The notes under the pieces are model-generated. The model was not told where the DNA came from, did not search any database, and worked only from the letters and a program-made list of their open reading frames with translations. A stretch of DNA of 22,241 nt. Source: a virus. The stretch is from UHGV virus genome UHGV-1381228; one strand, written 5' to 3'. This document shows, one piece after another, positions 12,428 through 22,241 of the stretch; the first letter of the stretch is position 1, and every line of letters begins with the position of its first letter. A program made the translations under genes and the position numbers.

Positions 12428-12634
12428 TTACTGACCAAGCAGCGTTTTACCGCTGGTATTAGCGGTTGATGTGTCGCCCTGAGAACCGGTAAGCAGCGTA
12501 GAACTACGACCAGCAGCAGCGCGACGGCGACGAGTTTCTTCGTCGCGGGCATCAACAACGGCGGCATCCTGCTCCTGTGGTGCTGCCTGAACTTCTGGTG
12601 TTGCAGGCACTGATGGTGAGCTACCCATGCACAT
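12428..12634 (-). CDS. small hydrophilic protein upstream of portal (68 aa), uncertain
   Basis: ATG preceded by GGAGTCATTGATATG, a near-copy of the portal ribosome-binding region (GGAGTCATTGAAATG); the product is low-complexity, so coding status is uncertain. Confidence 0.3.
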   Translation of the reverse strand: MCMGSSPSVPATPEVQAAPQEQDAAVVDARDEETRRRRAAAGRSSTLLTGSQGDTSTANTSGKTLLGQ

Positions 12635-12724: not shown

Positions 12725-12739
12725 TTACCTTTCAGGTAA
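12725..12739. repeat. palindrome TTACCT-TTC-AGGTAA (copy 3 of a recurring motif), about 20 bp downstream of a consensus TTGACA hexamer
   Basis: Perfect 6-bp arms with a 3-nt spacer; the same half-sites occur twice at 19919-19995; TTGACA at about 12703-12708. Confidence 0.5.
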
Positions 12740-15237: not shown

Positions 15238-15830
15238 TGATTACCATCCTGACGTTCTTTGAGTCGCTTCCTGGCTGCTGCTATGCGATCAGCAATTGTC
15301 ACATTCACATTAACATCCAGACGTTCTTTGAACGCGTTGACATCAACATGCTTACCAATCAGCTCAAGGTTCTTCACCTTGTCAGGCCATTTAATTTTTT
15401 TGAGGATTGTCTCTATCGAATCCTCGTTCATGTTCATGATGGTCGATGACAGATCAAAGCCACTAAGCGTAGTGCGCCAGATTTTCGGCCACTCACGGAT
15501 TGGTTTAAGGCTCCCATCGTCGTTGAGGATGTCGATCACGTCCATCTGGTCGATCTCCACCAGGCGCATGAGAACGTAATCAGCACTGACGCGCATTCGT
15601 TTGTTGCGCTCCTCCATCAACTCGGCAATCCGTTTTTGAATGCGTTCATCGCGCATCATGACACTGGCTTTAACTGCCGCTGTATTTGGGGAGAATCCTG
15701 CGTTAATCGCTGCCTGAGTCTGGTTTTCAGGCGTTTTGATGTATGACTGGCAATAAGCCTCCTGCATTGCTGTTAGTGGCTTAAATTGCGTTGATTTGCG
15801 TTTATAGGTTTTAGGTTCAGCAGGCATCAT
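15234..15830 (-). CDS. terminase small subunit (about 198 aa from ATG at 15830)
   Basis: Gene immediately upstream of and overlapping terL; the track start at 15908 (TTG) would place a terminator hairpin inside the ORF, so the tandem ATG ATG at 15830 (MMPAEPKTYKRK) is preferred. Confidence 0.6.
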   Translation of the reverse strand: MMPAEPKTYKRKSTQFKPLTAMQEAYCQSYIKTPENQTQAAINAGFSPNTAAVKASVMMRDERIQKRIAELMEERNKRMRVSADYVLMRLVEIDQMDVIDILNDDGSLKPIREWPKIWRTTLSGFDLSSTIMNMNEDSIETILKKIKWPDKVKNLELIGKHVDVNAFKERLDVNVNVTIADRIAAARKRLKERQDGNQ

Positions 15831-15872
15831 AACCACCGTGGTAATAGTTACCGTTGTGGTAATAGTACCATG

Positions 15873-15899
15873 CAAAATAAAGCCGCCATAGTTGGCGGC
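15873..15899 (-). terminator. intrinsic terminator-like hairpin immediately upstream of terS (GCCGCCA-ACTA-TGGCGGC then UUUAUUUUG)
   Basis: Perfect 7-bp GC-rich inverted repeat followed by a T-rich run on the minus strand, between the Cys-rich protein gene and terS. Confidence 0.55.
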
Positions 15900-17684: not shown

Positions 17685-18176
17685 TCACTCTCCTTTGATG
17701 CGAATGCCAGTGGTACTCATTCTCCTGATTTCCCAGAGCACACGAGGAACACCACCGTTTCCGACCGGATCGCGTTTACTCCGCAGGGCGACGCTTGATT
17801 CCGCCCAGCTTTTTCTTGGAGGAAGCTCTTTCACACGAACAAAACCAGCTGCGCGAAGAGATGCTCCTGATTCATCTGCCCGGGTGTACGTAATACAACG
17901 TTGATAACCCATAGCTTTTGCTGCCCGCCAGACAGCACCATAAAGCGCGCTGTTAGCGTTGCGTTCTCCTGTGGTACATGTGCGATTTACTTCAAGCGTT
18001 AATCCATCGTCCAAATGTCGTGCAACAGGTCGACCGGCTGTCGCCACACCTATCAATTCTCCGGCATCATTTCTCAGACCAATGCTGAATTTATGCCCCA
18101 CCGGGGGTTTATTGTGTCGGTGATGTCTGGATATAAATGCCTTCGCAACACGAAGAGTAACCGGTGAAATCTGCAC
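17685..18176 (-). CDS. hypothetical basic protein (about 163 aa from GTG at 18176)
   Basis: The track start (ATG 18215) overlaps the upstream gene by 37 nt; GTG at 18176 lies 7 nt after the AAGGAG Shine-Dalgarno. No confident family assignment. Confidence 0.45.
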   Translation of the reverse strand: MQISPVTLRVAKAFISRHHRHNKPPVGHKFSIGLRNDAGELIGVATAGRPVARHLDDGLTLEVNRTCTTGERNANSALYGAVWRAAKAMGYQRCITYTRADESGASLRAAGFVRVKELPPRKSWAESSVALRSKRDPVGNGGVPRVLWEIRRMSTTGIRIKGE

Positions 18177-18178
18177 TC

Positions 18179-18907
18179 TCACTCTCCTTTGATACCAATG
18201 TTTACAGTCTGGCAAGCTTCTCTGAGCACCCAGTCAATAGCGTCTTTCCATGCTCCGGTTTCGACTGACGGATTTTCACGCTTAACCTGTTCATAGAAGC
18301 GCACTGCTTTAACCAGTCCTTCCGGTACTACTGGCGATGGCTGTTTAGCTTCTAAATCAGCAATTCTGTCAACCACGGCATCGACAGCATCTGAAAAGCC
18401 GAACCAGTTACTCCACTCCGGTCTGTCCCCGGTTGCTGCAAAGTACATATCAGCTAAAGCAGACTCAGCATGGTCACGCTCATTGATGAGTTGCTCTTCG
18501 CTTTTCTCCAGTTCAGCAATACGATTACTTCCATCCGAGATAACACCTTCGTAATACTCACGCTGCTCGTTGAGTTTTGATTTTGTCTCCTCAAGCTCAA
18601 CACGCAGCTTCCCTACCGTTAGCGCAATATCCTCGTTCTCCTGGTCGCGGCGTTTGATGTATTGCTGGTTTCTTTCCCGTTCATCCAGCAGTGCAAGCAC
18701 GGTAGCCGGATTAGCCTTGGCAACAAAATCCCGGACTGGCTTACAATCAATCTCCGCAATGGGTTGATACGATGTGTAGCCATGCTGTCTTGTATAACTA
18801 CCGTGACGAATAACGAAAAAATCACCATTTATTTTTTTAGCCTGCCACTTATCTTCACCGGCTTTCTCTGCCGCTTCACGCAGTGCATGATAGTTAATTT
18901 TGTTCAC
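18179..18907 (-). CDS. Ea22-like coiled-coil accessory protein (242 aa)
   Basis: Central charged heptad-like region (ELEETKSKLNEQREYYEG...IAELEKSEEQLINERDHAESA); resembles Ead/Ea22-like prophage proteins (recalled); GTG start overlaps the upstream stop. Confidence 0.45.
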   Translation of the reverse strand: MNKINYHALREAAEKAGEDKWQAKKINGDFFVIRHGSYTRQHGYTSYQPIAEIDCKPVRDFVAKANPATVLALLDERERNQQYIKRRDQENEDIALTVGKLRVELEETKSKLNEQREYYEGVISDGSNRIAELEKSEEQLINERDHAESALADMYFAATGDRPEWSNWFGFSDAVDAVVDRIADLEAKQPSPVVPEGLVKAVRFYEQVKRENPSVETGAWKDAIDWVLREACQTVNIGIKGE

Positions 18908-19570: not shown

Positions 19571-19915
19571 TCAGAACTCTTCGATGTTCCAGCCACCACC
19601 TGCTTTCTTTGGTTTAACCGTTACCCCGATGATTCGGAACGGATACTGATCTGCGGCGACTTTGGTTTTCACCCTGGCGTCGTCGGTCCAGAAACCTTTC
19701 ACTTCGTGCAGTTCCATCTCTCCGGTGGCGAGCATCACAGCGAAATCGGGCGTATAGAACGTGTTGTCAGCTAACCGCAGCTTGATACCCTCGAATCGAT
19801 ACCAGGCGATTTCCCCTGCACGTTTACGCTGCTCAAGGTGCTGGCAATACGCAGATTCTGTTTTGTTCATCTGGCCTGTTTTGAGTCGACCAAGAGCCTG
19901 TATCTGTTTTCTCAT
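19571..19915 (-). CDS. conserved phage hypothetical protein (114 aa), possibly DUF1064-like
   Basis: First gene downstream of the P-like gene; its Shine-Dalgarno AGAGGT lies inside a TTACCT-N3-AGGTAA palindrome; family assignment from memory only. Confidence 0.45.
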   Translation of the reverse strand: MRKQIQALGRLKTGQMNKTESAYCQHLEQRKRAGEIAWYRFEGIKLRLADNTFYTPDFAVMLATGEMELHEVKGFWTDDARVKTKVAADQYPFRIIGVTVKPKKAGGGWNIEEF

Positions 19916-19918
19916 GAT

Positions 19919-19933
19919 TTACCTCTAAGGTAA
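19919..19933. repeat. palindrome TTACCT-CTA-AGGTAA (copy 1), overlapping the ribosome-binding site of the 19571..19915 gene
   Basis: Perfect 6-bp arms with a 3-nt spacer; the AGGTAA arm provides the Shine-Dalgarno 5 nt before the ATG at 19915. Confidence 0.6.
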
Positions 19934-19980
19934 TTGAAAACCATATAAGACACGAAATCAATAGAGTTTAGAATATTTTG

Positions 19981-19995
19981 TTACCTTGTAGGTAA
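19981..19995. repeat. palindrome TTACCT-TGT-AGGTAA (copy 2), 62 bp from copy 1
   Basis: Same half-sites, different spacer; in the intergenic region between the P-like gene and the next operon. Confidence 0.6.
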
Positions 19996-20007
19996 TTGTT
20001 GAGGCGT

Positions 20008-20027
20008 AAAAAAATGCGCTATCGCGC
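20008..20027 (-). terminator. weak intrinsic terminator-like element after the P-like gene (GCGC-GATA-GCGC then U7)
   Basis: Short GC stem followed by seven T on the minus strand, 5 nt after the P-like stop. Confidence 0.35.
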
Positions 20028-20032
20028 TGGTA

Positions 20033-20809
20033 TTACTTGATAAATCCTGCCGCCTTTCCCCGCCTGTATTCCTCCATCAGCCACTGCGCCGGTGTTATTC
20101 CCCCAAGGGTGGCGGCGTTAGGCATGCACCCGAAACTTCGCCCTGGTGGATGGTAAACGTCTCTCCCTGTGTCCGGAGGTGTACTCATGGGCTCTGGCTT
20201 TGCCTGTATGCTGATCACCGGATCGGGTATCTGCTGTCCGGAAGCCACCTTTTTCGCCCAATCATCGAGCAGCCTGCGCGCGTGTTTCTCAACCTCACTC
20301 TCGCTAAGCTGGCGCTGATACATTGCACGACGGGTATCACATACGACCCAGTACATAACCGGATGCCGCCACGGGAATCTTTCGGGACCACCAGGATATA
20401 AACTTTTTTCCTTGCTGTACCGGTGAAACTCCGCCATCACATCGTCAATGGTGACGCCAAGAACCATCTTGCTGTCTTTGCACCACTTGATGAATTGCCC
20501 TGGCGACGGCCAGAACGGAGATTCACTGGCGCGGGCGTGGCGCATACCAGCGTTAACCTGTTCCATTGTAGTGATCCCATTCTCCAGAAACGCAAGCATC
20601 CATTGCTTACGGAATTCATTAAGTTTGTTCTGCTCCCTTATGGTCGAAACGCTTGCAGGAAATGCAGCCTGTAACTGGACAAATAGTTCATTGAAAATTC
20701 TAGCAACCTGCTCCTTTTTGCCATTGCTGTCACGCCGCTCTTCATGCACAGCAACACCATGCTCACGTAAGCGATCGTACTCATTGAGAAGTTCTGGAGT
20801 TGATTTCAT
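20033..20809 (-). CDS. replication protein P-like helicase loader (258 aa)
   Basis: Segment FVQLQAAFPASVSTIREQNKLNEFRKQWMLAFLENGITTMEQVNAGMRHARASESPFWPSPGQFIKWC closely parallels lambda P as recalled (...ATFPASLANRDQNEVNEIRRQWVLAFRENGITTMEQVNAGMRVARRQNRPFLPSPGQFVAWC). Confidence 0.75.
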   Translation of the reverse strand: MKSTPELLNEYDRLREHGVAVHEERRDSNGKKEQVARIFNELFVQLQAAFPASVSTIREQNKLNEFRKQWMLAFLENGITTMEQVNAGMRHARASESPFWPSPGQFIKWCKDSKMVLGVTIDDVMAEFHRYSKEKSLYPGGPERFPWRHPVMYWVVCDTRRAMYQRQLSESEVEKHARRLLDDWAKKVASGQQIPDPVISIQAKPEPMSTPPDTGRDVYHPPGRSFGCMPNAATLGGITPAQWLMEEYRRGKAAGFIK

Positions 20810-21804: not shown

Positions 21805-21901
21805 TTTTTCCGCCCCTTTTTGTTATTGATATTGACTATTTTGCACAATTGGAAAATTTGATCAACCAGATTTGGTTTTTTATTACCCTTAAGGTGCGAA
21901 T

Positions 21902-21952: not shown

Positions 21953-22183
21953 TCATGAGTAGAAGAAGTATGCCAGTTCTGCTTTTGAGCGCAGCCATTG
22001 TCTTGTTTTACAGGCTTTAAAAAGCCCATTCATCAATACTTTACCTGGCATTTTGCGCTTGCCTGTTAAGTGAGTCTGGATATAGTGACTCGTCGTTCCG
22101 GCTTCCTGTGCGAAGGCTTCACGCTCATCCGGAGTAAGTGCAAGCCAGTGCTTTTTGAAATCGAAATGTCCGTTATCGCTCAT
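21953..22183 (-). CDS. Cro-like helix-turn-helix regulator (about 77 aa)
   Basis: HTH-like segment DEREAFAQEAGTTSHYIQTHLTGKRKMPGK resembles the Cro/YdaS-type pattern; first gene of the rightward operon. The track ORF extends into the adapter (MCIRDR); the real start is ATG at 22183. Confidence 0.45.
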   Translation of the reverse strand: MSDNGHFDFKKHWLALTPDEREAFAQEAGTTSHYIQTHLTGKRKMPGKVLMNGLFKACKTRQWLRSKAELAYFFYS

Positions 22184-22193
22184 AGCTATTGCC

Positions 22194-22241
22194 CTGTCTC
22201 TTATACACATCTGACGCTGCCGACGATATGCAGTGTGTAGA
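22194..22241. other. Illumina Nextera adapter remnant (Tn5 mosaic end CTGTCTCTTATACACATCT plus read-1 primer, index and P5 start); not biological
   Basis: CTGTCTCTTATACACATCTGACGCTGCCGACGA is the reverse complement of the Nextera read-1 adapter; followed by an 8-nt index-like TATGCAGT and GTGTAGA. Confidence 0.9.

Follow-up and report, generated by a model that had tools for sequence, protein, structure and literature searches.

Predicted repressor operators bracketing a promoter-like element ahead of the post-replication operon of a phiV10/epsilon15-like phage

The closest described systems are the predicted operators of Salmonella phage epsilon15 and the Rep-Ant switch of phage SPC32H. As relayed in a citing paper, Rep acts as a tetramer on palindromic sites, each DNA-binding pair being drawn from different dimers (Kim et al. 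2016); for SPC32H, a citing paper likewise reports that the antirepressor Ant dismantles the Rep tetramer. In the paper on Escherichia phage vB_EcoP_ZX5 (ZX5), overexpression of the repressor cut holin and endolysin transcripts by >99.9% and abolished free phage. The RefSeq record of epsilon15 carries seven features labelled 'protein_bind: repressor; lysogeny', all of which are the palindrome studied here. The DNA analyzed, referred to as the window, is the whole 22,241-nucleotide stretch of the UHGV virus genome UHGV-1381228. It shares with epsilon15 an identical palindrome of 15–17 bp, (A)TTACC-N5-GGTAA(T), at homologous positions, and differs in belonging to the E. coli phiV10/ZX5 branch, in which the repressor of ZX5 is homologous to Rep.

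The gap and its operator copies

The window comes from a phiV10/epsilon15-like temperate podovirus of the genus Uetakevirus. Identity to ZX5 is 99% over the gap region and 97.5% over the window, and three further Uetakevirus phages (phiV10, TL-2011b and HEMP4) are 97–98% identical. Gene content runs from a cro-like gene to replication, accessory, terminase, head and tail genes. Both window ends (1–46 and 22194–22241) are non-phage and consist of Illumina Nextera adapters with index sequences, which read AGAT-CAGCCTCG-GTCTCGTGGGCTCGG-AGATGTGTATAAGAGACAG on the plus strand at 1–46 and TCTACAC-ACTGCATA-TCGTCGGCAGCGTC-AGATGTGTATAAGAGACAG on the minus strand at 22241–22194. Megablast matches to related phages cover only the stretch between the adapters. 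The matches to the whole window also include 64 Synechococcus phage records, which likely reflects adapter sequence shared by those records. The listed ORF 22210..21953 begins within the adapter, and the true start of the cro-like gene is the ATG at 22183. As the window stops in the adapter at this gene, the repressor gene, OR and OL are absent from it, and the link to the repressor is therefore drawn from genomes 97–99% identical. Elsewhere in the window, the 176-aa product of 17685–18215 (minus strand) gave a weak match to the Mom family that stayed below threshold (E 1e-4, 22 bits; cut-off 27); its neighbours are Ead/Ea22-like and DUF551 proteins.

The locus of interest is an intergenic gap with the following features, listed in the direction of the flanking genes.

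20033–20809, minus strand: lambda-P-like replication gene from the ORF list (Pfam PF06992 Phage_lambda_P, E 5e-56), the upstream neighbour of the gap
20008–20027, minus strand: weak intrinsic terminator GCGC-GATA-GCGC, one A, T7, which folds as a 4-bp hairpin
19981–19995, no strand assigned: upstream operator, a predicted Rep site and exact motif match, TTACCTACAAGGTAA on the minus strand
19956–19961, minus strand: -35-like hexamer TTGATT, within the conserved cTATTGA, of which TATTGA is invariant in 8 divergent phages
19933–19938, minus strand: -10-like hexamer TTCAAT, separated by 17 nt from the -35-like hexamer and sharing its final T with the downstream operator, where it is the first base
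19919–19933, no strand assigned: predicted downstream operator, TTACCTTAGAGGTAA on the minus strand, overlapping the predicted start point and containing GAGGT
19571–19915, minus strand: DUF1064 gene, the first downstream of the module (Pfam PF06356, E 3e-7; annotated DUF1064 in ZX5 and phiV10)

An earlier note on this DNA had described the gap as the start of a post-replication operon, with two palindromes behind a weak terminator and a Shine-Dalgarno within the second palindrome. The operon label is reasonable, and each of the elements was recovered. The palindromes start at 19919 and 19981, 62 bp apart, inside the 117-bp gap 19916–20032, with 47 nt between the two sites. The Shine-Dalgarno GAGGT (19921–19925, minus strand) lies inside the downstream copy and 5 nt before the ATG, the minus-strand order being TTACCTTAGAGGTAA, ATC, ATG. 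The 4-bp stem of the terminator falls below the 5-bp threshold of our terminator scan; the element is nevertheless invariant in 8 phages, and its phiV10 equivalent is annotated as a rho-independent terminator (35038–35057). Read through, the gap comprises terminator, operator, 19 nt, TTGATT, 17 nt, TTCAAT, operator with Shine-Dalgarno, and ATG. The centre of the upstream operator is located ~61 bp upstream of the predicted start point.

An exact search for TTACCTNNNAGGTAA returned three matches in the window (12725–12739, 19919–19933 and 19981–19995), against an expectation of 0. No match occurred in 100 dinucleotide-preserving shuffles, which rules out a chance origin of these copies. All three sites have a perfect 10-base core, TTACC-N5-GGTAA. 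Operators outside the gap, one of them degenerate, are as follows.

12725–12739, no strand assigned: lone operator, at a distance of 91 nt upstream from the small pre-portal gene 12634..12428
15830–15862, no strand assigned: pair of operators spaced by 18 bp, immediately before the terS ATG (15827)
21883–21897, no strand assigned: degenerate operator GCACCTTAAGGGTAA that immediately follows the cro-like gene's terminator

The third exact copy at 12725–12739 and the related repeats before terS had both been pointed out in the earlier note and are real, the latter being 15848–15862 (TTACCACAACGGTAA, minus strand) and 15830–15844 (TTACCACGGTGGTTA). Their epsilon15 homologues are annotated as repressor binding sites, at 2931–2947 (before gp3) for the former and at 12–27 for the pre-terS sites. 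A good terminator hairpin (15882–15899) precedes the terS operators, the second of which abuts the ATG, and no obvious sigma-70 promoter was seen in the pre-terS region (15825–15899). This layout suggests activator-dependent late transcription under direct repressor control. The ZX5 counterpart of 21883–21897 is a better copy, GTACCTCAAAGGTAA; in the window, this operator sits ahead of a promoter-like TTGATC.

The gap is strongly conserved as a unit. In an alignment of 8 phages, the terminator, both half-site pairs, TATTGA, a TGG and ATCATG are invariant. The neighbouring genes are swapped between phages, with the P-like or another replication protein upstream and DUF1064 or a RuvC-like resolvase downstream. 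As these elements are invariant though the flanking genes differ, the whole unit behaves as a conserved cassette.

The repressor Rep and its sites in related phages

We consider it highly probable that the palindromes are operators of the phage immunity repressor, a homologue of SPC32H Rep, and that they act on the promoter-like element between them. The assignment to Rep is based on position, homology and curated annotation, and the rep gene is predicted to follow shortly after the window's high-coordinate end. In epsilon15, the annotated repressor sites include the one at the upstream position of the homologous gap (35906–35922, of which 35907–35921 align to 19981–19995). As this homologue is already annotated, the palindromes in the gap are an already known kind of feature. 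The epsilon15 annotation omits the site overlapping the ribosome-binding site and the OR sites, and operator sites are unannotated in the ZX5 and phiV10 records. Full-text searches, with the primary Rep-operator papers and the epsilon15 genome paper outside their scope, returned no operator description for this motif or for Uetakevirus.

The distribution of the motif was surveyed across related genomes. With up to 2 mismatches, ZX5 has 17 copies and phiV10 has 15, compared to ~0.8 expected. Allowing up to 1 mismatch, the core TTACC-N5-GGTAA is present 14–18 times per genome in seven complete Uetakevirus genomes (ZX5, phiV10, SPN1S, BUCT554, Tyrion, epsilon15 and Kp4865-1), whose hosts are E. 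coli, Salmonella, Enterobacter and Klebsiella. All 14 such sites in ZX5 are intergenic, although intergenic DNA makes up 8.6% of the genome (P ~1e-15), as are 14 of 15 in epsilon15. The earlier note had stated that a similar density in coding DNA would refute its reading; this is clearly not the case, with 28 of 29 sites intergenic over these two genomes.

The sites cluster around the repressor gene and are otherwise dispersed. The divergent region that separates the repressor gene from the cro-like gene holds three, and one of these falls inside the rightward promoter, between its -35 and -10. A further two or three are found immediately past the repressor gene, in front of the left operon. 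These clusters at OR and OL are present in ZX5 and the six other genomes. Further single or paired sites follow the cro terminator and the P-like gene and precede terS and the small pre-portal gene; others fall in the divergent antirepressor/tail-fibre region, and more degenerate sites precede the lysis genes and the integrase. In total, operators precede at least 8 transcription units in these phages. This indicates that in this genus most operons are kept silent by direct action of one repressor and not by a lambda-style antitermination cascade. For annotation, the palindromes can serve as markers of units under repressor control, namely those that follow cro and the replication genes and those that precede terS and the head genes.

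The ZX5 repressor matches SPC32H Rep (PDB 5D50, E 4e-42), and an identical Rep is encoded in 13 closely related phage records. Rep proteins of four clades are only 42–78% identical, yet the segment NLVNRW of their N-terminal DNA-binding domain is invariant. The same half-sites are used across the Rep clades, including those only 42% identical; this invariance arises partly by construction in motif-selected sets, and the 8-phage alignment and the Rep-selected loci are independent of that selection. A tblastn search of 50,697 phage records with Rep found full-length homologues only in Uetakevirus, all of which share the same half-sites. Metagenomic and prophage loci selected solely by their Rep protein (n = 80) carried the 62-bp pair at the gap position in 76 of 80 cases and the OL pair, after rep, in 76 of 79; the protein-pattern scan used for this selection returned loci that all have a 100% identical Rep. 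Conversely, Rep was found within the stored flank of 76 of the 97 motif-selected loci with a 62- or 63-bp pair.

The earlier note had offered, as one possibility, a DNA operator for a dimeric regulator. The operator part is supported by the clustering at OR and OL and by the epsilon15 annotation; the regulator, in contrast, is described in the paper citing Kim et al. (2016) as a tetramer with two dimer-like DNA-binding units and not as a simple dimer. The conserved TCAATAG was also compared by eye with WATCAANNNNTTR and does not fit as an IHF site. None of the host regulator boxes considered (LexA, HipB, TyrR, Cra and others) is known to fit TTACC-N5-GGTAA.

The 62-bp module and its variable centres

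The layout of the gap copies that of the left-operon promoter (PL-type) module downstream of the repressor gene. The PL module consists of TTGACA-17-AATTAT (10/12), is called by the promoter scan and is preceded by a strong terminator. The TTGA of the gap lines up with the perfect TTGACA of the PL module. The -10-like TTCAAT is weak, having no A at position 2. At 19936, a T-to-C change is private to the window, the other members of a 66-sequence set having T (TTTAAT). A promoter scan of the coding strand called no promoter in the window, TTGATT-17-TTCAAT included. The epsilon15 equivalent, TTGAAA-18-TAAATT, passes the same scan, and across phages the gap version combines TTGATT or TTGAAA with TTTAAT, TTAAAT or TAAATT. 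In the window, the gap promoter may accordingly be weak, activator-dependent or absent. An antisense promoter-like match, AAGACA-16-TAGAAT (TATAAT in ZX5), is present on the plus strand at 19947–19974, between the operators and directed towards the P-like gene. It was rejected as a conserved feature, since its hexamers are not kept outside the E. coli clade (Salmonella, Enterobacter, Klebsiella), and it may be due to chance.

Spacing within the pairs is nearly fixed. It is exactly 62 bp at both OL and the gap in the seven genomes, the one exception being the Klebsiella OL (63 bp). A collection-wide scan of spacings from 47 to 77 bp, in a survey that took in 120 IMG/VR loci, gave 96 distinct sequences at 62 bp, 11 at 63 bp and a scatter of others. 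Operators that adjoin one another, in the immunity region and before terS, form pairs 17–18 bp apart. A set of 117 distinct 62-bp modules was retained because TTGA follows the upstream operator by 19 nt in one orientation; in these, a -10-like hexamer lies 17 nt further on and ends with a T that is the first base of the downstream operator. The 62-bp module may be used twice in the genome, at the left-operon promoter and at the post-replication promoter. Its rigid spacing may be a new observation: the accessible literature, with the primary Rep-operator papers outside its scope, holds no description of a fixed 62-bp pairing.

Among 74 near-identical loci with identical Rep, the centre of the upstream operator exists in 26 haplotypes, compared to a median of 2 for other 5-nt windows, and no other 5-nt stretch of the 887 aligned bases is as variable. 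Per-site diversity reaches 0.5–0.6 over its 4–5 nt, versus 0.03–0.06 at third codon positions in the genes on either side. Among these loci, there is hardly any variation in the half-sites or the promoter-like spacer. Variability extends to the few bases between terminator and operator and to the corresponding part of the left-operon pair, but not to the OR sites. Hypervariable operator centres may likewise be a new observation, with no description found in the accessible literature, again with the primary Rep-operator papers outside its scope. Relaxed constraint alone seems insufficient to account for the variability. Possible causes include selection on operator strength, hypermutation or inversion of a hairpin loop, and exchange among operator copies. 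It is possible that the uncontacted centres are hot spots of mutation or diversification through which repression is tuned.

Alternatives, proposed mechanism and known systems

The overlap of the downstream palindrome with the DUF1064 Shine-Dalgarno could be read as control at the RNA level, with either a hairpin of this palindrome or mutual pairing of the two palindromes hiding the ribosome-binding site. In the 128-nt read-through leader (19905–20032, minus strand), the palindromes do pair with each other (-27.5 kcal/mol, z -3.45) in a fold that would bury the Shine-Dalgarno. Such pairing is, however, to be expected whenever a palindrome is present in two copies. The isolated hairpins, which the earlier note had offered as an RNA element, reach just -2.6 to -3.5 kcal/mol, and their arms never co-vary, being the same five bases at every site (~15 per genome) and in every clade. 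Positions 6 and 10, which would extend the stem, are often unpaired (C..A or A..G, for example). Most copies lie away from ribosome-binding sites, as do the OR sites, the upstream members of pairs and the site 91 nt before the gp3-like gene, and the same sequence occurs in the divergent repressor/cro promoter region. An Rfam search of the gap returned no match. A transcript from the gap promoter, if that promoter exists, would begin within the downstream palindrome, and its leader of ~11–14 nt would lack the 5' arm. The overlap is more simply explained by compaction, since the right half-site GGTAA preceded by GA spells GAGGT; this also accounts for the purine-rich central bases of the downstream operator in most phages. 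We therefore regard RNA-level control as very improbable, and the overlap should not be read as a riboswitch-like element or as evidence of a translational switch.

Two other alternatives keep the palindromes as DNA sites. Rep may bind the pair in the absence of a functional promoter and act only to stop PR read-through past a leaky terminator, as L5 stoperators do. The terminator is likely leaky, its stem being only 4 bp, and a terminator with an operator behind it recurs at several junctions (those after cro and P and the one before terS). The weak -10-like hexamer and the failure of the coding-strand scan to call any promoter in the window also fit a pure roadblock. Such a role would not, however, need strict conservation of the 47-bp inter-operator segment, in which TATTGA is invariant at the exact offset of the consensus TTGACA of the PL module, and the epsilon15 version of the promoter passes the scan. 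We judge this reading unlikely. A different phage regulator as the main binder appears less likely still. These phages encode several small regulators, and candidates include the cro-like protein (22183..21953), which has no Pfam match, a gp49-like protein upstream of terS and PerC-/AlpA-like proteins; in lambda-type switches, Cro shares its operators with the repressor. In the curated epsilon15 record, however, the sites are attributed to the repressor; the motif and Rep also occur together, and the invariant N-terminal segment of Rep parallels the invariant half-sites. Sharing of the sites by Cro would add to the Rep model and not replace it.

Under the preferred model of Rep operators around a promoter, the palindromes would bracket a promoter-like element heading the operon that follows the replication genes. 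In a lysogen, Rep would occupy both sites, judging from their positions, with one over the -10/+1 region and the other ~61 bp upstream. One tetramer probably bridges the two; this is the most economical arrangement given a tetrameric repressor and a conserved 62-bp spacing of about six helical turns. With both sites occupied, the post-replication operon would be silent independently of PR, and any transcription that passes the weak terminator would likewise run into bound repressor. Upon induction, Ant would dismantle the Rep tetramers and all Rep-controlled units would probably be released together. A more specific version, in which the operator pair is a fixed-geometry clamp of a Rep tetramer, 62 bp and a tiny promoter loop, with the operator centres as tuning hot spots, is offered as a tentative extension that we hold to be possible rather than probable. 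If bridging and hypervariable centres are both true, these phages would provide a compact natural system for the study of very short repression loops and the evolution of operator strength.

The arrangement resembles several known repressor systems. As with CI and Cro at lambda OL and OR, palindromes overlap promoters on both sides of the repressor gene, with three at OR, and lambda CI binds cooperatively to sites separated by whole helical turns. In lambda, however, the operators form two clusters and downstream operons are controlled by antitermination, whereas here operators are dispersed before most operons. Rep is also reportedly inactivated by the antirepressor and not by RecA-mediated cleavage. 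Dispersed sites for one repressor, mostly in short intergenic gaps near gene starts, are shared with the P1 C1 regulon and the stoperators of mycobacteriophage L5 gp71. The P1 and L5 sites are asymmetric and L5 action is orientation-dependent; the window sites differ in being perfect palindromes, without the asymmetry of L5-type stoperators, and in occurring as phased pairs. The closest parallel to the putative loop is found at lac O1/O3 and gal OE/OI, where two operators likewise flank a promoter, with a tetrameric repressor and a spacing near whole turns (62 bp, ~6 turns, in the window). Compared to these, the putative loop in the window is unusually short, with 47 bp between the sites.
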